UHGV virus genome: UHGV-0027446
Source: a virus
Length of the DNA stretch: 44,346 nt
Reading direction: 5' to 3' (one strand)
The position numbers were made by a program, and so were the translations under genes. The notes under the pieces are model-generated. The model was not told where the DNA came from, made no database searches, and was given only the letters and a program-made list of their open reading frames with translations. Positions within the stretch are counted from its first letter, which is position 1. Every line of letters starts with the position of its first letter. Shown here piece after piece: positions 300-17,281 of the stretch.

Positions 300-2839
300 T
301 CATCCACTACACCCGCAACGAAGACGGGACGTTCTCACAAAAACGGCATAACGACTCGCCGCTGAATTTCGTCGTAAACCATATCCCTGACGGTGTGCCG
401 TTTCGCGTTTTTCTCGAAGAGATAGGGGAGGATAACGACGTAACAGAAGATTTTGACGCATTAAAACAGGATGCTGTTTTTCACGTCCTGGAAGGTGCTG
501 GTGGCGGCGCTATAAAGGGTGTGATGAAAGTGTTCAGCATAATCCTTAAACCGCTGGCTAAATTACTCACACCGTCAACAAAGGGTGCGTCTAATAATCT
601 CGCTAACCAGCAAGCGGACTCGCCGAATAACAGTCTGACGGACCGAAATAACAAGGCCCGACCATATGAGCGAACTTATGACATCTGCGGCCGGGTGCAG
701 ACAATACCCAACAACCTTATGACAACTTATAAGGTTTTCGATAACGCGGGCCGCATCATTGAGTACGGCTACTATGATGCCGGGCGCGGGTATCTGGACG
801 TTAAAGCGGAAGACATCACCGACGGAGACACCAAAGTCCAGGAGATAACCGGAACTTCTGTAGCGGTGTACGCCCCGTACACGTCACCCAATAACACAAG
901 CTCTCCGCAACTTCTTGTTGGCGAACCTATCGACCAAAAGTTGTATATCACCATAGCATCTAATGAAGTAGACGGTGCGGTACTGAAAGCTCAAAACGGC
1001 ATAAGAGTAAACCCAAGCGATACCGGTGAGATATCGCTGCAAGGGACAACGGGTATTGTACGTGATGCAACCGGAGATTCCGCGTTTACAGAAATTCTGT
1101 CAGTTGGCGATGTGGCCGTTTTCAATCTCATTCTGGTAAAAGATGTCGCTAACGTAAGCGGTAATTATACGGTCACTTACGTCGATGATTTCGAGGTTAG
1201 AGTCGCTGTAGGTGGTATGCTCACCGAATGGCAGAAGTTGCCATCTGGTTTCACACGGATGACACAGGGTAACGAGGCGTGGATTTCACCCTCAAACACA
1301 TATGATAAATCATTAACCGACTGGACAACGCTTAACCGTCTGCCAGTAGAGCGCATCGTTGCAAATATTGCCGCCGCTAATGGCATGTATAAAGACAATG
1401 GCAGTAAACTAAGGGCCTCTGTCACCGTCGAGTTGCAGTATCAGTTACTCGATACCACCGGAACACCTTACGGGCCTGTATATAGTAAGCAAGGCGCCAT
1501 CTCAGGGCGGTCGTCAGATTACACCGGCGTAACAATCTATGCTGACCTGCCGTCGGCGTCTAACGTTCGTGTAAGGGCGCGCAGGGTGACAAACCTGGAC
1601 CTTGCTTTCGAAGGTACAGTAGTGGACGAGGTTTCTTACATAAACCTGTACGGGCAAATACGCGACACCACACCTAACTACGGAAACAGAACCACCGTAC
1701 ATTCAGCACGTAAACAGACACCCCGGGCCGCAGAGGTTAAACAGCCACAATTGCGAATGGTAGTAACTGAGATGGTGTACAAGTACCTCGGTAACGGTGT
1801 TTTTGACTCCGTAAGAACGCCAAACACGCAAGCGGTACAGTCGCTGATTCGTCTTGCCCGTGACCCTGATGTCGGCGCGTTGAATCTGACAACGGCAAAT
1901 ATGGATAAACTGTTAGCGGTACAGAGCGAAATTGAGGGCTATTTCGGTAGCGCATCCGCAGGAGAGTTTTGCTACACGTTTGATGACTATAAAACTACGA
2001 TGCAGGACATAGTAACTACGATAGCGGAAGCAATTTTCTGCACTCCATATCGTAGAGGCGCGGATGTTCTTCTGGACTTTGAGCGCCCGCGAATTGGTCC
2101 CGAGATGGTATTTACCCACCGCAGCAAAACCACCGCTACGGAGAAGTGGACACGCACGTTTAACGATGCCCAGGTATACGATAGCCTTAAGTTTTCATAC
2201 ATCGACCCGGATACTAACGTCAAAGAGACAATCAGCATCCCGGCCGAGGGCGGGGTTAATACTGAAACGTACGACTCTAAAGGTATCCGTAATTATCGAC
2301 AGGCGTACTGGGCCGCATATCGTCGATATCAGAAAAACCTGTTGAAGAAGGTGACAGTATCGTTCACGGCGACAGAAGAAGGGATTTTTGCAATGCCTGG
2401 GCGGGCGGTAAGTGTGGTGAAAGGTTCACGTATAGCCCCGCAAGACGGTTATGTAATCGCCGTTAATGGTCTTACCCTGACTTTATCACAGCCCGTTACG
2501 TTTACCCCCGGTGATGACCACTCACTGATTCTTAAGAAGCGAGACGGGGGAGTTCAAAGTGTCGCCGTTGTGCCTGGAAGCCACGACCGTGAAGTGGTTA
2601 TGCTATCCGCGCCACAGGAGGCGATATACACGGGGAATAGCGCACTAAAAACTGAGTTTTCATTCGGCAACGAAGCAAGGCATAATGCTCAGATGATTCT
2701 TGTTTCTACAGTTGACCCTGGAGACGACAGAACGGTTAAGATTACCGGGATTAAATATGAAGCAGATTTCTATAAATACGACGGCGTCGCGCCATACGGC
2801 AGCGGTTTCTCCGACGGATTCAGCAACGGTTTTAGTTAA
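290..2839 (+). CDS. tail tip / host-specificity protein (gpJ-like central fibre)
   Basis: 849-codon ORF after minor tail genes and before tailspike; TTG start preceded by AGGAG at about -9; Gly-rich hydrophobic N-terminal segment. Confidence 0.5.
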   Translation: MAIVIHYTRNEDGTFSQKRHNDSPLNFVVNHIPDGVPFRVFLEEIGEDNDVTEDFDALKQDAVFHVLEGAGGGAIKGVMKVFSIILKPLAKLLTPSTKGASNNLANQQADSPNNSLTDRNNKARPYERTYDICGRVQTIPNNLMTTYKVFDNAGRIIEYGYYDAGRGYLDVKAEDITDGDTKVQEITGTSVAVYAPYTSPNNTSSPQLLVGEPIDQKLYITIASNEVDGAVLKAQNGIRVNPSDTGEISLQGTTGIVRDATGDSAFTEILSVGDVAVFNLILVKDVANVSGNYTVTYVDDFEVRVAVGGMLTEWQKLPSGFTRMTQGNEAWISPSNTYDKSLTDWTTLNRLPVERIVANIAAANGMYKDNGSKLRASVTVELQYQLLDTTGTPYGPVYSKQGAISGRSSDYTGVTIYADLPSASNVRVRARRVTNLDLAFEGTVVDEVSYINLYGQIRDTTPNYGNRTTVHSARKQTPRAAEVKQPQLRMVVTEMVYKYLGNGVFDSVRTPNTQAVQSLIRLARDPDVGALNLTTANMDKLLAVQSEIEGYFGSASAGEFCYTFDDYKTTMQDIVTTIAEAIFCTPYRRGADVLLDFERPRIGPEMVFTHRSKTTATEKWTRTFNDAQVYDSLKFSYIDPDTNVKETISIPAEGGVNTETYDSKGIRNYRQAYWAAYRRYQKNLLKKVTVSFTATEEGIFAMPGRAVSVVKGSRIAPQDGYVIAVNGLTLTLSQPVTFTPGDDHSLILKKRDGGVQSVAVVPGSHDREVVMLSAPQEAIYTGNSALKTEFSFGNEARHNAQMILVSTVDPGDDRTVKITGIKYEADFYKYDGVAPYGSGFSDGFSNGFS

Positions 2840-7720: not shown

Positions 7721-7848
7721 TCCAGTACCCACAAATAAATTGCTACTAGCATACCCAATACGGCGACCATCATGCCGTATTGACCCTCGTGACAGTAGAC
7801 ACCGGCGGCGAAGCCCGCCAGTACCGCGATAATCAGTTTACTTAGCAT
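7717..7848 (-). CDS. small hydrophobic membrane peptide (43 aa)
   Basis: Hand-translated MLSKLIIAVLAGFAAGVYCHEGQYGMMVAVLGMLVAIYLWVLE; start overlaps last codons of polymerase gene. Confidence 0.25.
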   Translation of the reverse strand: MLSKLIIAVLAGFAAGVYCHEGQYGMMVAVLGMLVAIYLWVLE

Positions 7849-10800
7849 AACGCTTCATCTCCGCGCCTTCCGCTACAAGAGGGAAGCCCTCTGCCCATTC
7901 CGGCAATTCGCACATCAACCGCCCAAGCTCTGCGACATTGTATTCTGGTAAATCTGGCGTCTCGCAGATAATCTCATCGTGAACATGAAGCACAATAGGA
8001 TAGCCGTTTGCCTCTACGTTCAGCAGTGCATTAGCCAGCAAATCACGGCACAGCGCCTGAGTGCAGTTTTCCACCAGTTTACCAGAGTAGGTGTACTGGA
8101 AACCCCACTGCCGTGTTAACTGGTTTTCACCCTGGTACTTGATGCGGACGTTAGTAGACACCTTCCCGTCTTCGTCTGTCTCTTTAGACACGCTTAACCC
8201 GACTCCGGGGTAAGACATAACGCGGCCCGACGGCAGCGTCATGCGCAACCACCAACCAGCGACTTTGTTGCCGTTGCTATCTGTCTCTACGTTGCGCGAA
8301 AATTTAACGCCGCGTGGCCCTGCAGTGAACTCTTTGCCAGGATTACGGATAGCCGCCATAGCCGCATCTTCAATATCCCGCCAGAACGCTACTGTTTCCG
8401 GGTGTGACTCACGCCACATGCGCTTGATAGCGTCGCAGGTACGCCACACTTTCTTATCAAGAATATACGATGGTCGGTCATCCTTTTCACCGGGCCGCGG
8501 AGGTCGCTTGGCTTCCTGAATACGCGCCCATTCATATCCGCGTGCAGTAGCGGCCCATATATGGTCGGGGAAAGTACCGTCCATTGTTTTAGCCATATCA
8601 ACAAGATTTAAGCCGAGGTTTTTAGCAAACTGAACGAAAGCGCCGACGCCGCCTGCGTAGCCGAGGCCCAATTCACAGTTATGCGCCACAAGAAAGCCAG
8701 AGTCTGACGCTATAAGAAAACGGTTACCGTCTTCCACATCAATCAGGTCGTAAACCGGCTCGCAGTAGGTTAATTTCCCGTTCAAGCTCAGCAATGCGGG
8801 CAACGGCTGCATCATATTTTCGTTGAAGCTCGGGTATTTGCCGCCTGTTACGGCAGTTTTCAGAACGGCTGACAAACCGAATGTTTCCAGGTTCGTAGTT
8901 ACCGTCTGTGTCGATTCTGTCCATTTCGAGGTTTGGGTCGTCCCAGCCTTCCAGAGTTTGAACATATCTAAGAAACGACCTTTTATCAGTCCTCCACTGG
9001 TTAAATACCGTGATGCCCCTGGCGCCATAGTTTTTATAGCCTTTGTCATTAGGTTTTGTTGTTCGCGATATCGCCGCGGACAGCCGGTTGAGCAATCGCG
9101 CTCTGTGACTGTCATCTGGCATCGCATCCTCGTAACAGAAATACTGTTTACGATATTTTTTTGTTGCTTCAAGTGCGCAGCGGTTACATTGAGTGGTTTT
9201 ACCTCTTCTAACATTGTCGTACCCGACGCGCCCCGGAATCTCTCCGCAATCACATTGAGCAAGTAGTTGTCTATGACCTTGTCGTTTTGGTAACTCGCGC
9301 AGGATAACCAGGCGTCCATACCTCTCTCCAGGGCGAGGCCCATCATATATTTGTTTGAAACGAGTTGCTTTGCCGCCTTCCAGGAATGCGTCAATATTTT
9401 GTGGTCTTCGGTCATTAGAACCCCGTCCACATTTATCACTGGTTTCCACCCCATAAGGTGCGCGCCTTTTGTATTCACCCATTTTTCACCGTTCCATACT
9501 TTATCTGTTGATGTAACCGCCATAATATCCTTAAATCCACCATCGGTCAAAACTTGGGTATGGCGGTGAAGACAGGCCTTGCCAATCTGGCGCAGGTCAC
9601 TACGGCTTTCGAGAATGTAATCGGGGTCCATTCCGAACATCTTACCCGCAGTTACACAGTAAATATCCAGTCCCGCACGGAAAGTATCGAGAGCGGTTTC
9701 TTCTCCCGCCAGCCATGCCAACCCGCGTCCTTCAACGTTAGAGTAATCGGCGACTACAAACTTATGTCCGGCTTCCGGTATGATGCAGCTACGCACCGTC
9801 GATGCCGTTAGTTTGGCCACATCAAAACGGCGATGCGCACGGCCTTTAAACAACAGGTCGATTCCGTAGGACAATGGGTGTGTTACTCGCCACCAGTCCT
9901 TCTCTGACATCCAGTCATAGCGTACTTTCTTCTTTTTATTCTTCGGGTCGTCGTGATAGTACCCGCGCGCCAGGTTCTGCGGCTGAAAGCCTTTGCCCGC
10001 AAATCGTAATGTACGCTTCGCTCCGCCATACTGGATGCAACCACGACGGCGGTCGTCCGACGAGCGGCCCAACAGCAGCGGGTTATATTTCGTTGACGCG
10101 GTAGACGCGGCTCCGAGGCGCATTTCGATAATCATGCGGGCGTCGTCCGGTAAATCATCATCCGCCAACAAGTCATTCAGCGTTGACTTCTGCGCGTTGT
10201 GGATGCGGTGCGCGGGTGCGAGTTCACGCAGAATCGGCAGAAAGTCTTTACCAGTAAGCGAGCCGCCGTATTTTCGTTGGGCTTCTTCCTGTAACTGCGC
10301 TTTGTGTTTCTCCACGGCTTCAATCGCGGCTTCTGCCAGCGCGACGTCTACCTTAAACCCTCGGTCATTGATTAACTGGTCCAGCTCAAGTACACGGTCC
10401 TCGAACTCTGAGTTACCCCACCGCGGCAGCTTATGGAAGACTTCACGCATCGCAGTGATGTCGCTCACGGCGTACTTGATGAACAGCGCCCACTCGTCCG
10501 GGTGTGTTTCGGCGGTGTAGCGGCGGATTTTGTAGTTCTTCGGCGTAGGTTTAGAAAAACGCTGAATCAGCGCCTTGCCGCGTTTGTCTTTTGCGTTGTC
10601 TGCGGACACGCCCAACACTTCGCACAAAGCATCAAGTGAACCCGGCAGCGCGTGACGAAACGCCCAAATCATCGTATCAATGGTGTTGTTTACCGGAATA
10701 TCAAAACCCCAGCAGTGTTTCATGATGAGCCTGTCGAACATTGAACCGTTGTGCCACACCATCTTGATACGGCTGTTCGGTTTAACCAGACGGCGTAGCG

Positions 10801-10987
10801 CGCGGTGCAAATCGCCAGGCATGTCGCTGCCGTCTGTGCAGTCCCATACCTGTACGGGCTCGTCGTCAAAAGCATAAGTACAGATGAGCACTTCGGTTGA
10901 CGGGTGTTCGGCGTAAGCGTAGGAACCGACTTTCTTTAAATCGACTCCGGAGAATGTTTCAAAGTCTAAGTAGAGTAATTCTGGCAT
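7838..10987 (-). CDS. family-A DNA polymerase with 3'-5' exonuclease domain, interrupted by an intein
   Basis: Exo I motif YLDFETFS; motif A VVADYSNVEGR; motif B split by a 299-codon insertion; likely start at ATG (MPELLYLDFE), track ORF extends to TTG at 11017. Confidence 0.85.
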   Translation of the reverse strand: MPELLYLDFETFSGVDLKKVGSYAYAEHPSTEVLICTYAFDDEPVQVWDCTDGSDMPGDLHRALRRLVKPNSRIKMVWHNGSMFDRLIMKHCWGFDIPVNNTIDTMIWAFRHALPGSLDALCEVLGVSADNAKDKRGKALIQRFSKPTPKNYKIRRYTAETHPDEWALFIKYAVSDITAMREVFHKLPRWGNSEFEDRVLELDQLINDRGFKVDVALAEAAIEAVEKHKAQLQEEAQRKYGGSLTGKDFLPILRELAPAHRIHNAQKSTLNDLLADDDLPDDARMIIEMRLGAASTASTKYNPLLLGRSSDDRRRGCIQYGGAKRTLRFAGKGFQPQNLARGYYHDDPKNKKKKVRYDWMSEKDWWRVTHPLSYGIDLLFKGRAHRRFDVAKLTASTVRSCIIPEAGHKFVVADYSNVEGRGLAWLAGEETALDTFRAGLDIYCVTAGKMFGMDPDYILESRSDLRQIGKACLHRHTQVLTDGGFKDIMAVTSTDKVWNGEKWVNTKGAHLMGWKPVINVDGVLMTEDHKILTHSWKAAKQLVSNKYMMGLALERGMDAWLSCASYQNDKVIDNYLLNVIAERFRGASGTTMLEEVKPLNVTAAHLKQQKNIVNSISVTRMRCQMTVTERDCSTGCPRRYREQQNLMTKAIKTMAPGASRYLTSGGLIKGRFLDMFKLWKAGTTQTSKWTESTQTVTTNLETFGLSAVLKTAVTGGKYPSFNENMMQPLPALLSLNGKLTYCEPVYDLIDVEDGNRFLIASDSGFLVAHNCELGLGYAGGVGAFVQFAKNLGLNLVDMAKTMDGTFPDHIWAATARGYEWARIQEAKRPPRPGEKDDRPSYILDKKVWRTCDAIKRMWRESHPETVAFWRDIEDAAMAAIRNPGKEFTAGPRGVKFSRNVETDSNGNKVAGWWLRMTLPSGRVMSYPGVGLSVSKETDEDGKVSTNVRIKYQGENQLTRQWGFQYTYSGKLVENCTQALCRDLLANALLNVEANGYPIVLHVHDEIICETPDLPEYNVAELGRLMCELPEWAEGFPLVAEGAEMKRYAK
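8678..9574 (-). mobile_element. intein inserted in polymerase motif B
   Basis: Starts CLHRHTQVLTDGG (block A), has LMTEDHKILT (block B), ends YDLIDVEDGNRFLIASDSGFLVAHN with Cys at +1; excision restores RQIGKA-CELGLGYAGG. Confidence 0.7.
8739..9482 (-). CDS. HNH homing endonuclease, encoded in an alternative frame within the intein
   Basis: 247-codon ORF, same strand as polymerase but a different frame; YGRLVIL, QCDCGEIPGRVGYDNVRRGKTTQCNRC, KGYKNYGARGITVFNQW, LEMDRIDTDGNYEPGNIRFVSRSENCRNRR. Confidence 0.55.
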   Translation of the reverse strand: MGEYKRRAPYGVETSDKCGRGSNDRRPQNIDAFLEGGKATRFKQIYDGPRPGERYGRLVILRELPKRQGHRQLLAQCDCGEIPGRVGYDNVRRGKTTQCNRCALEATKKYRKQYFCYEDAMPDDSHRARLLNRLSAAISRTTKPNDKGYKNYGARGITVFNQWRTDKRSFLRYVQTLEGWDDPNLEMDRIDTDGNYEPGNIRFVSRSENCRNRRQIPELQRKYDAAVARIAELEREINLLRAGLRPD

Positions 10988-11007
10988 GGTATTTCGACCC
11001 TTAGTAA

Positions 11008-11027
11008 AAAGGCCCAATGAAGGGCCT
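11008..11027 (-). terminator. intercistronic hairpin / attenuator between SSB-like gene and polymerase gene
   Basis: AAGGCCC-loop-GGGCCTT followed on the minus-strand transcript by UUUUUACU; lies in the 30-nt gap just upstream of the polymerase RBS. Confidence 0.45.
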
Positions 11028-11047: not shown

Positions 11048-11674
11048 TTAACGGCGGCGACGTTCGCGGCGCGGTGCTTCATCGTCTTCATCGTCTTCCA
11101 GGTCATTGACGCTTGCGACAACTTTAGAACCGCCAAACGCTTTACCTTCACCAACGTATTTAATTCCCAGCAGCTTAACACCGAGGACTTTATATTTCTG
11201 GCTGAACCAGATTTCAACGCTTACGTTAGCGACGCATCCGCTGTAAACCTGTTCGCCTTCAATCTGTTCACCGTCTACATTGAAGTCCTGTTCTACCTGA
11301 GTCTCACCTTTTTTAGAGGTTATAATCAGAGGCTGTTTCTGTGCCTTCGCTTTGAAGTAGAAACCTTCCGGGAAGTCTTCAAACGGATTGTCGCGCTCGG
11401 CAATGTCTTTAATAGCGCATTTATCCATGTGCTTACCTTCGCCGTAGTTGGACCGCATCCACTTCTCGGCAGCGGCGGCACCTAACGCTTCTTCAACTAC
11501 AGCGTAAACAGTATCGTATAGCGCATTAATTTGAGCGTGGTCCGGCGTCAGGATAATCGTTGCGCTGTACTGGCCTTTAGTGATTGAGCCATCATCGTTT
11601 TCACGGTCTTTTTCTCGTTCAAATACGTTAACCCAAGCAGTGTTTACTTTACGCAGATTTAATGTCAGTCCCAT
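11048..11674 (-). CDS. putative single-stranded DNA-binding protein
   Basis: Adjacent to RecB-like exonuclease and polymerase; acidic C-terminal stretch DLEDDEDDE; assignment by context and composition. Confidence 0.4.
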   Translation of the reverse strand: MGLTLNLRKVNTAWVNVFEREKDRENDDGSITKGQYSATIILTPDHAQINALYDTVYAVVEEALGAAAAEKWMRSNYGEGKHMDKCAIKDIAERDNPFEDFPEGFYFKAKAQKQPLIITSKKGETQVEQDFNVDGEQIEGEQVYSGCVANVSVEIWFSQKYKVLGVKLLGIKYVGEGKAFGGSKVVASVNDLEDDEDDEAPRRERRRR

Positions 11675-11733: not shown

Positions 11734-11762
11734 ACTATAATAGCTAACTATTCAGGTGTCAA
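11734..11762 (-). promoter_or_regulatory. sigma70-type promoter, family A (TTGACA-N17-TATAGT)
   Basis: Minus-strand TTGACA cctgaatagttagctat TATAGT; spacer nearly identical to promoter at 14400. Confidence 0.5.
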
Positions 11763-11766
11763 CACT

Positions 11767-13008
11767 TTATTCTAAATCCTCCTCGGTTGCCTGATTCCAC
11801 TCAGGACGTTTGTCGTCCGCCGTTGCGACGCATGGTGCTCCGGGCTTACGGATAATGAAGTCTTTCAGTTCTTCTTCCGGTATTACTTTAACCGCTTCGG
11901 TCGGTGACATGAGCACTTCTTTAGTCAGCTTGTCGCCGTAGAGTTCTGCTACTTTCTCTGCGTCTTTCCACGCACGATTGCCCATCTTACCTTCTACCAG
12001 CTTGTACCCCGGCACTTTCTTACCAGAATGCAAAGCGGCAGCCATAGCTTTCTCAACCTTGTCTATGTGCTGGCGCAATAGCGGCAACTTCTCATACTCA
12101 GCTACGAGTTGCTCTGGCGTAAGTTCCAGCACAAAGTCGTCTTCCAGTTCTTCTGCCAGTACCGCGTTAACGGTTTTTGTACGCGCGGCGCACTGTTCAG
12201 AGAACCGGCACCACTGGCAACCATCGACCGACGGCCTGAAATCCGATGCTTTCAGGTTCTTCTTACCGCGGAAGTACGCATCAAGGGCTAACAGCGCGCG
12301 TTTCTGTGCGAACTTAGCGAACAGTTCCAGACCTTCAACCGAGATATCCCACTCCGACGCACCTCCGGCATACGGCTGGAAGATTACCAGACGAACCGTT
12401 GTTATGTTATAACGTCTCTTGAGTCGGCGATAAACACCGAGAGCGTAAAGCATAAGCTGCTTGTTTTCCTTCGCTTCGACACGATGCCGTCCTGTTTTCA
12501 GGTCACCAATAATAAGCATGTGCTCGTCGGTGTTAGCCAGTTCCTGCACGGCAACGAGGTCAGCGGTTCCGAACGTCTCGACGCCTTCGTAACCCGGATG
12601 CAGCACCTCAGTAAGATTGACGCGCATCTCGAGCTTGACGTAAGTCGCCACGTCAATAATCGCTTTGCAGTAATCGGTGTACTTTGTACACTGGTCAATC
12701 ATGTCCGCCGTAATCAGTACCGCGCCTTTCATCGGACTGATTAGCGCCTTAATCAGGCCTTTACCCTCGTCCAGCACGTAAGCACCGACTTCCCGCACTA
12801 AAGGCAACGCAGTTCCTTTAATGTACTGATTCAGGTGAATCTCAGATATCGTGTGCATAGCCGTGCCTGATACGGCAGCTTTGCCTGACGTGTTAGGAAT
12901 GTCTTTTTCACAGGCCAGTGATGCGGCGCAACTTAGCCACTTTTTAGCGCCGGACGGCGACAGCAGAGCGTGTACATCATTATTGCCGCCGCGTTCTTTT
13001 AGTTTCAT
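11767..13008 (-). CDS. RecB/Cas4-family PD-(D/E)XK exonuclease
   Basis: GTADLV...IIGDLKTG nuclease core and C-terminal Cys cluster CQWCRFSEQC; ATGA coupling to upstream gene. Confidence 0.6.
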   Translation of the reverse strand: MKLKERGGNNDVHALLSPSGAKKWLSCAASLACEKDIPNTSGKAAVSGTAMHTISEIHLNQYIKGTALPLVREVGAYVLDEGKGLIKALISPMKGAVLITADMIDQCTKYTDYCKAIIDVATYVKLEMRVNLTEVLHPGYEGVETFGTADLVAVQELANTDEHMLIIGDLKTGRHRVEAKENKQLMLYALGVYRRLKRRYNITTVRLVIFQPYAGGASEWDISVEGLELFAKFAQKRALLALDAYFRGKKNLKASDFRPSVDGCQWCRFSEQCAARTKTVNAVLAEELEDDFVLELTPEQLVAEYEKLPLLRQHIDKVEKAMAAALHSGKKVPGYKLVEGKMGNRAWKDAEKVAELYGDKLTKEVLMSPTEAVKVIPEEELKDFIIRKPGAPCVATADDKRPEWNQATEEDLE

Positions 13009-13864: not shown

Positions 13865-14368
13865 TTATTCTTCTTCGAAATACTTGTTCTTGATTGCCGT
13901 CAGGCGTTCCAGGTATTCGGCCAAGTTTTCGTCTTTAATCGCGGCAATCTTCATCTTTTTACCAGTGAACTCTTCCAGCAGTTCATCAGAATCATCGCAC
14001 GCGGCATCGCTAGGACCTTCGTTAATCGCATCGTCGATAGCCTGAATCTGGTCACGCAGAGACTTATAATCGACCCCTTCTTCCGTTTCCGGCGTCGGTT
14101 CCTCTACTTTAGCTTTACGCGGCTTGCGTTTCGGCTTCTCTTCTTCTTCTGCCGGTTTAGTGTCAACGATGTCTTCACCTTCGATAGGGATTTCTTTCCC
14201 GACGCCAGTACCAGGGTCGACTTCAAGTACCTCTCCCGTAACCGATACGTCCACAAGCATTTCACCTACATGCTCAGTTTGGTGCACGGGGCGTTTTGCG
14301 ATATTCGCGGCAATCAGTTCATGTGCAACTACGAAACGTTCCAGTAATTTTAAGAATTGGTCTAACAT
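13865..14368 (-). CDS. acidic hypothetical protein, first gene of leftward early operon
   Basis: GAGGAGAG SD; highly acidic (E/D-rich) product; directly downstream of promoter 14400..14429. Confidence 0.45.
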   Translation of the reverse strand: MLDQFLKLLERFVVAHELIAANIAKRPVHQTEHVGEMLVDVSVTGEVLEVDPGTGVGKEIPIEGEDIVDTKPAEEEEKPKRKPRKAKVEEPTPETEEGVDYKSLRDQIQAIDDAINEGPSDAACDDSDELLEEFTGKKMKIAAIKDENLAEYLERLTAIKNKYFEEE

Positions 14369-14399: not shown

Positions 14400-14429
14400 A
14401 CTATAATAGCTAACTATTCATTATGTCAA
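14400..14429 (-). promoter_or_regulatory. sigma70-type promoter, family A (TTGACA-N18-TATAGT), leftward
   Basis: Minus-strand TTGACA taatgaatagttagctat TATAGT; divergent from Cro-like gene promoter. Confidence 0.5.
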
Positions 14430-14726: not shown

Positions 14727-15023
14727 CTATTCCAAATTCTTAATCGTGTGTTGCACATTCAGGTACTGAATCCAGGCGAAAAACCATACGCTCACCGGAA
14801 AACTAACCGCGGCAGCCGTTCTGAAAACCATGTGGGCGGTACACGCTACAATTTCCTTTAACGTCATATCCAGAACATGGCGCAATTCTGCAACTTCCTC
14901 TAACGCTAGCCTGCAAACAGGCCACCATTGGTGGGCTACACAAGAAACACATGTCAGGTATGACGGGCGGTATCCGGCCCTAACTGCTTTAAACGGGTTA
15001 TCTATAAAATCGTAAATATTCAT
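14727..15023 (-). CDS. hypothetical protein
   Basis: 98-codon ORF; ATG overlaps primase stop (ATGA); SD GAGGAGGA lies within primase C-terminal codons. Confidence 0.4.
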   Translation of the reverse strand: MNIYDFIDNPFKAVRAGYRPSYLTCVSCVAHQWWPVCRLALEEVAELRHVLDMTLKEIVACTAHMVFRTAAAVSFPVSVWFFAWIQYLNVQHTIKNLE

Positions 15024-17281
15024 TCCAAATCCTCCTCTGTCACTGTCAGCATTTCATTCGGTTCGTATATCGTCTTCGGAATCTTGTTGTCGTTTATGCC
15101 CCACGGCAACCGGTATTGCTTAGGGATAGGCCTGTTGTTGTTATCCAGGCCTGAGACGATAACCCCGGCCTCGTGCATCTCTTCCAGTTTCTTTCGAAGG
15201 TCGTTATTAGCGTTAATCGGTACGCCGTAACTATCTTCTTTCGCTGCTTTGACGATAGCCGACATAGAAAACCCCCGCTTGTCGTCGCCCTGCTCCTGCA
15301 ATTTACCCAACGCGTAAATAACCGTAGCTTCTTTGGTGTCCAGTTTCTCGAACTGGACTACCTTCTCTTTAACGGCTTCCTTCTGTTCGTCGGTCATACC
15401 TTCTACTTTCTTCACGAAGACAGAGAATGCGTTGAAGTTAACAAAGACATCAATATGCGGATTTCCTGCGTCAAAATCGCGGACATCATCACTACTGTAC
15501 CCTTCCGGAAGACCCATGAAGTTGTGAGTTGGTTCTTTCTTTTCCGGTGGCTCCGCTATCTGAATCTTTTGTATTACGAACCCTCTGGCTTTCTGCCGTT
15601 CTCCGTTTCGGTTCTTTATGTGATACAGATTTATCTCTAAGTTATTGTCGTTGTCCGGCTTATGCAGGAACATCCCGTTATCGATGGAGTTGTGAAAATC
15701 ACTACCACCCTTCGGCATCATGCCGTTCTCGGATGGTACGGTTTCGTCAATGTTTTTAGTTGGGTGCACCATAGCACCTACCGCGGCATTAAGCGTCGAC
15801 GCTATTTCGTTAAGTGCCTGCGCGGCTTCTTTCATCGAGCGGTTGTCATTCTCATCAAAGCCCGGAATACATGTTTGCAGCGTATCAAAAGTGACTTTAA
15901 CAATTTTCTCTTCCCCGGCAACACGGCGCATCATTCTCACCGCCTGGCGTCGCCATGCTTCGTCGAGTAGGTTACACCCATCTGCAACACAGTCGATAAT
16001 GTGTAAGCGGTCCAGGTTATCGCCAAGAGCAATCTGCAAAGATTTTTTATGTCGTTCGAACGACTGTGCACCTTCACCGGCGAAAATGAACGCATGTCCT
16101 TCCGCGACCTCTGCCCCGCCGAACGCATATCTTTTTTCGGCGGCAATAGCGGCGTCAATCGCCATGCTAAACGTTGACTTACCAGTGTGGGACTTTGCGC
16201 AAATGTAGAATGATTCGTTAGTCTGCATAAGGCCGTCTACGACGGAGTAAGCAGGTTCTTTTTCAACTTCCGGCTCGTCTTCGAGGTCTTCCAGCGTGCA
16301 AGTTACTGGCTCTTCGTTCTCTGTGCGGTGCAATTCCTCAATCTCTTCGTCCGGTAAATCCGGCAGAGCCGCGCGAATGCTGTTAATACTAATAGGTTGC
16401 TTGTCTACGTTAAGCTCATCCGGAAGACCGCACATACGCAGGGCCAAATGTTGCCGGCGATTAAGCTCGGTGCAAGCGCCATTGTTCGTGTGCTGGCACA
16501 CGAAGCGCACTTCTTTACCGTCGAGCATGATGCTGGTGGAGCCTTTGCCCGTGTGCAGATGCTCGTTGGGGCATGGCACTTCATACCCGCGCCCGGAAGA
16601 TAAAGCGTCAAGTCCAAGCTCCGCTTCACAGAAATGTGCGATATCAGCGTTAAGCCCATGCTCATCGGCGGCAAGTGTCTTAGCTTCACGCTTACGCAAC
16701 CCCATCTCTTCGGCTTTCTTGATGTACCGCTCGGCACGGATAACACGCCCTTCTGTAACCGTTATCTTCGACTCTCTATGCGGCAGGTAGATAAGGCGGT
16801 TGCCGTCTTCCGTGCAGTGGTCGCGCAATGCTTCGTCTATTTCTAACTCTGCACAAATAGCACGTTGCACCATCCACGCGTCGTTAGAGTTAAACGGTGT
16901 GCGGGCCGGTACAAGAACGCGGAAAGCGTAATCACCGTTTTTACATGCGTGCTGGTGCGACGCCGTTGTATGCAGGATATTGAAGAACGGCGCATTCTTG
17001 AATTTACGTGTCAGGTCGCGATACTGTGTACGGTTGAGATGGTCGAAGTCGAACTTAACTACACTATCTTCCAGAATCGCGTTCTTACGGCGACCACCAA
17101 CAGGCGCAATTGCTTTCTGCTTAATCTTGGCCGCGTCGTACTCTTCCTTAGTCCACGACGGGTCTACCGACAAACGCTTCGATGTATCGCAGACATACTC
17201 TACGAACTGCTCAAGCGGCATTTCACGCGCTACAGGGTTTTTATCGAATGTGTTACGCAGTGTTGCAAAAACAATATTCAT
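15020..17281 (-). CDS. DNA primase/helicase (primase-type N-terminal domain with zinc-binding Cys/His cluster, P-loop NTPase C-terminal domain)
   Basis: VKFDFDHL acidic motif, CPNEHLHTGKG...CQHTNNGAC, Walker A AKSHTGKST. Confidence 0.65.
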   Translation of the reverse strand: MNIVFATLRNTFDKNPVAREMPLEQFVEYVCDTSKRLSVDPSWTKEEYDAAKIKQKAIAPVGGRRKNAILEDSVVKFDFDHLNRTQYRDLTRKFKNAPFFNILHTTASHQHACKNGDYAFRVLVPARTPFNSNDAWMVQRAICAELEIDEALRDHCTEDGNRLIYLPHRESKITVTEGRVIRAERYIKKAEEMGLRKREAKTLAADEHGLNADIAHFCEAELGLDALSSGRGYEVPCPNEHLHTGKGSTSIMLDGKEVRFVCQHTNNGACTELNRRQHLALRMCGLPDELNVDKQPISINSIRAALPDLPDEEIEELHRTENEEPVTCTLEDLEDEPEVEKEPAYSVVDGLMQTNESFYICAKSHTGKSTFSMAIDAAIAAEKRYAFGGAEVAEGHAFIFAGEGAQSFERHKKSLQIALGDNLDRLHIIDCVADGCNLLDEAWRRQAVRMMRRVAGEEKIVKVTFDTLQTCIPGFDENDNRSMKEAAQALNEIASTLNAAVGAMVHPTKNIDETVPSENGMMPKGGSDFHNSIDNGMFLHKPDNDNNLEINLYHIKNRNGERQKARGFVIQKIQIAEPPEKKEPTHNFMGLPEGYSSDDVRDFDAGNPHIDVFVNFNAFSVFVKKVEGMTDEQKEAVKEKVVQFEKLDTKEATVIYALGKLQEQGDDKRGFSMSAIVKAAKEDSYGVPINANNDLRKKLEEMHEAGVIVSGLDNNNRPIPKQYRLPWGINDNKIPKTIYEPNEMLTVTEEDLE

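Follow-up and report, generated by a model that had tools for sequence, protein, structure and literature searches.

Matching acidic motifs on the exonuclease, primase-helicase and ssDNA-binding protein of a Kagunavirus-like phage: a candidate docking peptide of the duf2800-gp2.5-polA module

RESULTS

The replication genes of UHGV-0027446

The virus genome UHGV-0027446, the whole 44,346 nucleotide stretch of which was analysed and is referred to here as the window, is that of a Kagunavirus-like (Guernseyvirinae) siphophage whose replication region is about 91% identical to that of Escherichia phage Golestan. Two genes of this region, one for a DUF2800 exonuclease and the other for a primase-helicase, give proteins with one and the same acidic hexapeptide, TEEDLE, at the C-terminus, and this shared C-terminal tail, together with a motif of the same type in the neighbouring protein that binds single-stranded DNA (the SSB), is the subject of the present analysis (Table 1).

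The exonuclease matches PF10926 (DUF2800) over residues 13-402 (E=2.9e-69; 234.5 bits against a cut-off of 21), with its last 11 residues lying beyond the domain model, and is also matched by PF12705 (PDDEXK_1; 32 bits against a cut-off of 22) and phrog_69. Foldseek matches of the predicted structure include AdnA, MGME1, Dna2, AddB, Cas4, RecE and lambda Exo (best E 8.6e-6), and among 121 sequences D150, D169, K171, C27, C267 and C273 are invariant and C264 nearly so; as modelled, the protein is a nuclease of the RecB-family fold with catalytic D/E/K residues and a four-cysteine cluster. The primase-helicase has DxD and sxH-type motifs and a Cys/His cluster in its N-terminal part, where from the invariant D78 and D80 we infer a primase of the archaeo-eukaryotic (AEP) type, and its core is of the RepA/DnaB-like AAA_25 kind. 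The SSB is a member of PF10991 (Enc34_ssDNA-bd; E=6.9e-14) and of phrog_112 ('Gp2.5-like'; E=3.4e-39), with a weak match to PDB 4jg2. The genes for the exonuclease, the SSB and a family-A DNA polymerase adjoin on the minus strand and there is no separate ssb gene, which is the organization of the duf2800-gp2.5-polA replication/recombination module described previously (Steczkiewicz 2021, PMC8093625; Lopes 2010, PMC2896510). This module is present in 1554 phage records, and the representative library contains 11,622 exonuclease homologues at E<=1e-3; a sequence search found no solved structures of either the exonuclease or the primase-helicase family.

Table 1. Genes, motifs and signals of the replication region, in window coordinates
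Feature	Position	Strand	Remarks
DUF2800 / PD-(D/E)XK exonuclease gene	11767..13008	-	413 amino acids (aa); RecB/Cas4-like, four conserved Cys
Exonuclease tail ATEEDLE	11770..11790	-	stop 11767..11769; D-L anchor 8 residues past conserved DKRP element
Primase-helicase gene	15020..17281	-	753 aa; phrog_3228 'replicative helicase-primase', E=5e-297; AAA_25 core
Primase-helicase tail VTEEDLE	15023..15043	-	stop 15020..15022
gp2.5-type SSB / annealing protein gene	11048..11674	-	208 aa; DUF2815 / Enc34_ssDNA-bd
SSB proximal motif V189-E199 (VNDLEDDEDDE)	11078..11110	-	7 residues past OB core end (..KAFGG); D-L-E core
SSB acidic run, then basic end APRRERRRR	within 11048..11110	-	
Shine-Dalgarno sequence GAGGAGGA	15037..15030	-	in primase-helicase tail codons, six bases ahead of ATG
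98-aa gene downstream of primase-helicase	14727..15023	-	phrog_2638, E=7e-25; ATG 15023..15021 overlaps primase-helicase TGA stop (ATGA)
Family-A DNA polymerase gene with intein	7838..11017	-	DNA_pol_A
'13.88 kDa' protein gene	13865..14368	-	167 aa; phrog_3127
Near-consensus sigma-70 promoter	11734..11762	-	TTGACA-17-TATAGT, 11/12 matches; directly after exonuclease stop
Second near-consensus sigma-70 promoter	14400..14429	-	TTGACA-17/18-TATAGT, 11/12 matches; upstream of 13.88 kDa gene
Polymerase intein	8677..9577	-	CLHRH...VAHNC
HNH endonuclease open reading frame	8739..9482	-	247 aa; phrog_374, E=2.5e-47; wholly inside intein, another frame, same strand

The shared hexapeptide

Read on the minus strand, the exonuclease gene ends GCA ACC GAG GAG GAT TTA GAA TAA (11790..11767; A T E E D L E stop, the protein ending ..NQATEEDLE) and the primase-helicase gene ends ACA GAG GAG GAT TTG GAA TGA (15040..15020; T E E D L E stop, the protein ending ..LTVTEEDLE). 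An earlier note, made from the window sequence, had pointed to this common hexapeptide and to the near identity of its coding sequences (gaggaggatttRgaatRa), and both observations were confirmed: 16 of the 18 nucleotides match, and TEEDLE occurs only twice in the six-frame translation of the window, each time as a C-terminus. Among the 62 window genes called greedily, only these two end in Asp-Leu followed by at most three residues (DL.{0,3}; KRPEWNQATEEDLE is an example of a tail peptide). Since the six-frame translation has two occurrences and the expected number of protein pairs with a common C-terminal 6-mer is 1.1e-4 (1e-4 by Monte-Carlo shuffling), we take the match to be real and not a product of chance.

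Conservation of the tail in homologues

The earlier note had named homologues lacking the motif among the findings that would refute a common docking peptide. Of the 240 closest homologues of the two proteins, however, nearly all retain the tail, and it persists well beyond them. Nearly all of the best 120 exonuclease homologues end in V[TS]EEDLE, and the primase-helicase tail (V[VTI]TEEDLE) is kept in 119 of its best 120 homologues, which are only about 60% identical overall to the window protein; searching with a diverse primase-helicase profile yielded that close cluster again and no further relatives. The primase-helicase of the window is itself a mosaic, an allele shared by a single 90% cluster (P0121, with 351 members). 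Compared with the common Kagunavirus allele, its residues 1-320 show about 99% identity and its core (about 350-715) shows 17-43%; over the last 19 residues (PKTIYEPNEML.VTEEDLE) conservation is again about 99%, despite the replacement of the helicase core.

The wider clade of the window was represented by 86 loci, 80 of them from IMG/VR together with several GenBank phages, which include Kagunavirus, Jerseyvirus, Dhillonvirus and other lineages. Both proteins end in an acidic-x-D-L tail in every one of these lineages, over a range of exonuclease identity of 47-95%, and the two of them retain the core motif [ST]-x-[DE]-D-L-x(0-3) as far as the lower of these values. The exonuclease and primase-helicase tails vary in company, as in the pairs TEEDLE and TEGDLE, TDSDLED and EEDDLEN, SDEDLS and SDEDLNS, ATDEDLSNE and ATDDDLKD, and ADADLSD and DDDLSD. 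A terminal DL.{0,3}$ is found in 56 of the 60 distinct exonuclease and primase-helicase tails of the 86 loci, against 15 of 1167 tails (1.3%) of other genes, and nine of the 15 come from a single further family, ending AT[LP]EDLE or ASPEDLE. The polymerase, with C-termini of ..RYAK or ..YRKD in all lineages, is the constant member of the module that never has the tail.

The further family is a 77-aa protein (phrog_5169) whose gene is found in 23 of the 86 loci, directly upstream of the primase-helicase gene (for example at 470..703 on the plus strand of locus L001), and one or other of the two ends is present in 23/23. It has no Pfam match and is called 'UvsX-like' in one record; loci L021 and L030 have a variant of 91 or 106 aa with S[RH]DLE at its end. 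This gene is missing from the window, where unrelated small open reading frames occupy its position.

The highly acidic 13.88 kDa protein, encoded between the primase-helicase and exonuclease genes, ends in the aromatic-acidic KNKYFEEE, and its homologues end KYYE[IL]ED or, in one case, KYYDLED. To judge from its sequence, it may likewise be a client of the putative docking site discussed below, or of a similar one.

Matching motifs in the SSB and across the module

The window SSB has, immediately after its OB core, a motif (ASVNDLEDDEDDE) of the same type as the exonuclease tail. This arrangement is general to the 37 non-redundant lineages (exonuclease identity below 65%) that were compared: in all of them the OB core ends ..DG(E/D)(P/A)(L/F)GG and is followed, after a spacer of 2-8 residues, by a motif of the exonuclease-tail type, with ATDDDLDDDDD, ANDDDLDDDD and CSDEDLGDDD found in other lineages of the window clade. 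More distant phages with an exonuclease-SSB-polymerase module use other motifs (DDFxxL, WDDEDEV, DDDDEL, AESLI), which are again matched within the genome. Thus in Staphylococcus phage 3A the exonuclease ends ..SAEDDFDKL and the SSB has ..AAEDDFDELD.., and in Yersinia phage YeP4 the two proteins have ..NDFENVDETESAESLI and ..DDFDEITEGADAESLI respectively. The Chi-like phage Siskin has ..AWDDEDDDEV on the exonuclease, ..AWDEDEDWEDEV on the SSB, ..PFDDEDEV on the primase and ..VWDDEE on the helicase, and Aeromonas phage phiWae15 has ..FDDDDDEL, ..DEDDDDL and ..HDDDDEL on the exonuclease, SSB and primase, and ..EEEEEDL on a 137-aa protein. Locus L157 pairs an exonuclease TVNVDDFDDDIE with an SSB TVNVNDFDDDLG, and locus L143 pairs EDFDGEFGG with TDFDGEFDD.

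The exonuclease is the most consistent bearer of the tail in the module. Among 146 representatives drawn from the whole exonuclease family, a [DE]-[F/L/W] anchor (F in 69, L in 30, W in 9) lies a median of 8 residues (interquartile range 7-9) after the DKRP element, and the spacing in the window exonuclease fits the median exactly; the clade with the L-type anchor is monophyletic.

Co-variation was assessed by a permutation test over the 37 lineages, comparing same-genome with cross-genome motif similarity. Exonuclease tails resemble the proximal SSB motif of their own genome (24.3) more closely than those of other genomes (18.3; p=1e-5), with the genome's own SSB partner ranked first in 12 of the 37 lineages; leaving out the window clade does not abolish this result. 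The tails of exonuclease and primase are also matched (p=2e-4), a signal driven by the window clade and by the Chi-like and phiWae15-like phages, whereas the polymerase controls gave no co-variation signal (p=0.39 and p=0.17). The resemblance does not extend beyond the tail, as a comparison of the exonuclease C-terminal domain with the SSB found no homology (hhalign probability 0.6%). Phages of enterobacterial hosts (E. coli, Salmonella and Yersinia) use three different motif types.

The window SSB does not have the usual acidic-hydrophobic tip, its acidic run being followed by the basic end listed in Table 1; a basic end of the form PR[RK]xRR is present in all Guernseyvirinae and Dhillonvirus lineages. 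Judged by its composition, this basic cluster could pair electrostatically with the acidic tails, or could serve SSB-SSB cooperativity.

Selection on the peptide and the Shine-Dalgarno overlap

The earlier note had further proposed that the tail codons of the primase-helicase gene supply the Shine-Dalgarno sequence of the gene downstream. This is so: GAGGAGGA is a purine-rich element of the GGAGG type at a spacing within 5-9 nucleotides of the ATG, the downstream reading frame is a real gene with its own family (Table 1), and it is translationally coupled to the primase-helicase through these codons. The window exonuclease gene has the same GAG GAG codons, and there the stop codon is followed by a promoter and no gene, so that no Shine-Dalgarno function applies.

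Relatives of the window separate the two roles. Where a small gene overlaps the exonuclease stop codon (ATGA), the tail is encoded by GAG GAG GAT TTA GAA, and where the exonuclease TAA is followed by a promoter it is encoded by GAA GAA GAT TTG GAA, the peptide in both cases remaining EEDLE; many primase genes are followed, after a TAG stop, by a terminator hairpin, and TEEDLE is kept there as well. Because the tail is recoded synonymously where no gene follows, we conclude that selection acts on the peptide and that its use in ribosome binding is an overlay; the nucleotide match between the two tails and the Shine-Dalgarno overlap noticed earlier are therefore real but incidental to the peptide. 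The codons themselves vary widely. All six Leu codons (TTA, TTG, CTG, CTC, CTT, CTA) and both Asp codons are used in the tail across lineages, distant lineages keep D-L with wholly different codons, and the Dhillonvirus pairs differ at almost every codon. Identical tail residues are encoded by identical codons in 51% of cases between exonuclease and SSB and in 44% between exonuclease and primase-helicase of the same genome, as compared with 43% across genomes.

Two nucleotide-level origins were discarded on these grounds. A tail kept as a by-product of a Shine-Dalgarno sequence was rejected on the survey of codons and downstream contexts, in which the peptide was kept with changed codons and with no gene downstream, and gene conversion between tails was rejected as there is no excess of sharing at the codon level.

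DISCUSSION

The motif at the ends of the exonuclease and the primase-helicase is conserved within each family, co-varies within genomes and is selected as a peptide. We consider it probable, on the evidence of these sequence patterns, that TEEDLE is a co-evolving docking motif of the kind found on gp4 and gp2.5 of phage T7, here extended to an exonuclease. On this reading TEEDLE would be the clade's version of a short acidic-hydrophobic motif ([ST]-x-[DE]-D-L followed by 0-3 residues), which selection would keep matched among the proteins that handle single-stranded DNA (ssDNA), namely the DUF2800 exonuclease, the primase-helicase, the gp2.5-type SSB and, in relatives, the 77-aa protein. From the same patterns we infer that the tail binds a partner, and which partners are plausible: it would provide a common protein-protein contact, much as the acidic tails of T7 gp4 and gp2.5 do, and would tether the enzymes that generate ssDNA, the resection nuclease and the helicase, to a phage-encoded receptor of the SSB's own motif. 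A phage-encoded receptor is likelier than a host one because phages of the same hosts use three motif types.

The comparison with T7 is close in several respects. In both systems the helicase-primase and a gp2.5-family SSB have similar short, net-acidic tails with a hydrophobic anchor, the family-A polymerase has no tail, and the module is small and self-contained. The tails of T7 gp4 (..STDWSNDTDF) and gp2.5 (..EEADEDGDF) bind basic patches of the gp5 DNA polymerase (PMC12593628), a contact which is also attributed, by way of secondary citation, to Hamdan 2005. The differences are that here the tail is also present on an exonuclease of the RecB/Cas4 type, and in relatives on the 77-aa protein, while the T7 gp6 exonuclease ends ..EIYLWRP and has none; that the anchor in the window is Leu followed by Glu and not a terminal Phe, F or W anchors being used by other lineages of the module; that the SSB copy is internal in the window clade; and that the exonuclease tail is predicted to be ordered.

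As to the receptor, the polymerase is a candidate because it is the constant, tail-less member of the module and by analogy with T7; contacts of the tails with basic patches on it, as in T7, are a possibility that we rank slightly below the two that follow. A receptor site on the OB domain of the SSB, reached by mimicry of the SSB tail that contacts a neighbouring SSB in crystals, is a tentative possibility. In crystals of Enc34 ORF6, of two DUF2815 proteins and of T7 gp2.5, the acidic C-terminus contacts, with its proximal part, the OB sheet of a neighbouring molecule, with a buried area of 842 A2 for the Enc34 contact, and these gp2.5-family contacts point to the SSB OB domain as much as to the polymerase (PMC5686142). 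The window SSB belongs to the same family (PF10991) as these proteins with tail-in-trans contacts, and PDB 4jg2 ends ..AADDFTTIEDD, which is the motif type of Firmicutes phages. The crystal contacts are nonetheless between SSB molecules and of unproven biological relevance, and that an exonuclease or helicase tail would occupy the same site is our extrapolation from them. Another site, which could be a pocket on the exonuclease itself, is a possibility of about the same weight as the SSB OB domain.

Should the SSB be the receptor, the tails of the nuclease and helicase would mimic its inter-subunit motif and so would couple the loading of the SSB/annealase to the production of ssDNA, making this the counterpart, in a Gp2.5-type recombinase, of the contact between lambda Exo and Red beta. 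As with lambda Exo-Red beta and RecE-RecT, the exonuclease gene adjoins that of an annealing protein, and a specific physical link is to be expected; Gp2.5-like proteins of such modules anneal in vivo (PMC2896510). In lambda it is a folded C-terminal domain of Red beta that contacts Exo (PMC6393309), whereas here a short motif matched between the two proteins is the candidate link, and the exonuclease has a RecB/Cas4-like fold and an additional C-terminal domain.

Several observations weigh against such a docking role. The AlphaFold2 model of the exonuclease, built from a diverse alignment of 121 sequences, has a mean per-residue confidence (pLDDT) of 93.5, with values below 50 for the N-terminal 8 residues, and in it the tail is ordered on the body of the protein (pLDDT 94 for residues 401-410 and 90 for 411-413), residues 409-412 (EEDL) forming a helix. 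This order, together with the fixed distance of the anchor from DKRP across the exonuclease family, suggests that the tail packs onto the exonuclease, either in cis or in trans within a homo-oligomer; the two features agree with a structural element packed in cis no less than with a tail that can be released. The tails of the window, moreover, have D-L-E with an anchoring Leu and a final Glu, where those of T7 need a C-terminal aromatic residue, and the SSB motif of the clade is internal, being followed by a long charged extension that ends in basic PRRERRRR. The primase tails match those of the SSB or exonuclease only in the window clade and in Chi-like, phiWae15-like, Javan51 and 3A-like phages, and over all lineages the comparison of the primase tail with the distal or proximal SSB motif is not significant (p=0.05-0.3); participation of the primase is on this account restricted to some lineages and is not general.

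By analogy, an ordered tail is compatible with docking, in that the tails of gp2.5 and gp32 bind in cis but also bind partners. The ordering is also not secure, as in an AF3 model of the homologue from phage Bas14 the C-terminal region is called disordered (bioRxiv 10.64898/2026.07.14.737667). The tail of the window primase-helicase has a pLDDT of 31-38, in a model from a shallow alignment that is poor as a whole and uninformative (mean pLDDT 44.6). The suggestion of the earlier note that the acidic tail is a docking peptide, made by analogy with T7, is thus supported in that the motif is conserved, co-varies and is present also on the gp2.5-type SSB, and qualified in that the exonuclease tail may, from the AlphaFold model, not be a free peptide.

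The same structural observations lend themselves to an alternative in which each tail is an independent cis element, either a structural plug or an acidic DNA mimic that, like the tails of gp2.5 and gp32 when they act in cis, lies on the DNA-binding surface of its own protein, so that the likeness of the tails reflects similar physico-chemical needs and no common receptor. The confidence with which the exonuclease tail is placed against the protein body (pLDDT 90-94), the fixed register of its anchor 8 residues after DKRP and the fixed distance of the SSB motif from the OB core all favour this, as does the finding that in T7 gp2.5 the tail and ssDNA compete for the cleft of that protein (Marintcheva 2008, cited by way of PMC5686142). 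We nevertheless think it unlikely, though deserving of serious attention: proteins of unrelated folds would hardly need an identical hexapeptide or change their motif type together by lineage, a fourth and unrelated protein of 77 aa has the same tail in all 23 cases, and in T7 and T4 cis binding and trans docking are not exclusive. Recognition of the tail by a host factor, as a protease degron, a sliding-clamp-binding motif or a mimic of the host SSB tip, appears improbable. An acidic C-terminal tip with a hydrophobic residue is indeed the means by which bacterial SSB recruits many partners, but the SSB C-terminus has a Pro-Phe tip and the clamp-binding pattern is QLxLF, neither of which is present in EEDLE, and enterobacterial phages sharing their hosts use motifs of the EEDLE, WDDEDEV and DF..AESLI types. 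The likeness to the bacterial SSB tip (..DDDIPF) is that of a short, acidic and hydrophobically anchored motif; in SSB it ends a flexible tail that recruits proteins at ssDNA, one tip binding many enzymes, whereas here the arrangement is inverted and it is the enzymes that carry an SSB-like motif.

Explanations that dispense with a function for the peptide fare worse. That GAGGAGGA was kept as a Shine-Dalgarno sequence, of which EE(D) is just the in-frame translation, draws support from the window primase-helicase, where the element stands six bases before an overlapping ATG, and from the use of GAG GAG in many relatives whose exonuclease stop overlaps a downstream ATG; with EEDLE kept as GAA GAA ahead of a promoter, TEEDLE kept ahead of TAG and a terminator hairpin, and neither the D nor the L accounted for (the Leu being encoded by six codons and the distant D-L by other codons), we find it hard to credit. 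Concerted evolution without function, in which short-tract gene conversion or recombination would copy one tail onto other genes of the genome, could be prompted by the 16 of 18 identical nucleotides in the window, by the annealing protein that the module itself encodes and by the highly mosaic nature of these genomes, and is equally implausible. The identity of codons within genomes is not above that between them, and without a within-genome excess of codon sharing gene conversion does not explain the matching; the almost complete codon divergence of the Dhillonvirus pairs and the retention of the motif in each family over deep divergence, which implies selection, speak against it too. Acidic residues are common in phage replication proteins, and two acidic C-termini might in principle coincide by chance, but given the expected frequency of such 6-mer pairs (1.1e-4) and the retention of the motif in hundreds of homologues of both families the probability of this is close to nil.

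A more general form of the docking proposal, to which we give rather less than even credence, is that the tail is a lineage-specific, transferable 'address tag' that holds the duf2800-gp2.5-polA module together. The tag would reside on the SSB and be copied to enzymes acting on SSB-coated or nascent ssDNA, always to the exonuclease and in some lineages to the primase-helicase, to another helicase and to accessory proteins of small size; in particular, it would by tail mimicry supply the missing physical link between exonuclease and annealase in the Gp2.5-type two-component recombinase, and its rapid diversification would prevent cross-talk between the replication machineries of co-infecting phages.

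It is well established that acidic C-terminal tails act as connectors of the replisome. New here are the particular motif, the fact that accessory proteins and an exonuclease of the RecB/Cas4 type carry it, and the way in which it co-varies from genome to genome throughout a very large family; the searchable literature yielded no earlier account of tails shared among proteins of DUF2800 / Gp2.5-like modules. A preprint of July 2026 reports that the DUF2800 nuclease of phage Bas14 triggers the type IX retron, calls the role of the nuclease in the phage life cycle unknown and describes viable escape mutants with truncations, from which the nuclease is dispensable in Bas14 (bioRxiv 10.64898/2026.07.14.737667). 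If the docking reading is correct, it would provide a concrete handle on the assembly of a phage replication/recombination module that is very common and unstudied in biochemical terms, would account for the coupling of the DUF2800 nuclease to the SSB/annealase, and would widen the T7 acidic-tail principle from two proteins to a co-evolving code used throughout a family. Matching of tails could also predict replisome members of uncharacterised phages, the 77-aa protein and the 137-aa protein of phiWae15 having been found in this way.

Additional features of the region

The near-consensus promoter directly after the exonuclease stop codon drives the SSB gene, and in relatives its site is replaced by the small gene that overlaps the exonuclease stop; a second promoter of the same kind precedes the 13.88 kDa gene (Table 1). 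The polymerase intein contains an HNH endonuclease reading frame lying wholly within it, and the intein and HNH frames are both free of stop codons in all 11 of the intein-bearing polymerases sampled, Dhillonvirus included. At 70% nucleotide identity, the identity of the amino acids is still 71% in the HNH frame but just 39% in the intein frame, and from its sequence the element looks like a mini-intein with a linker overprinted by its own homing endonuclease.

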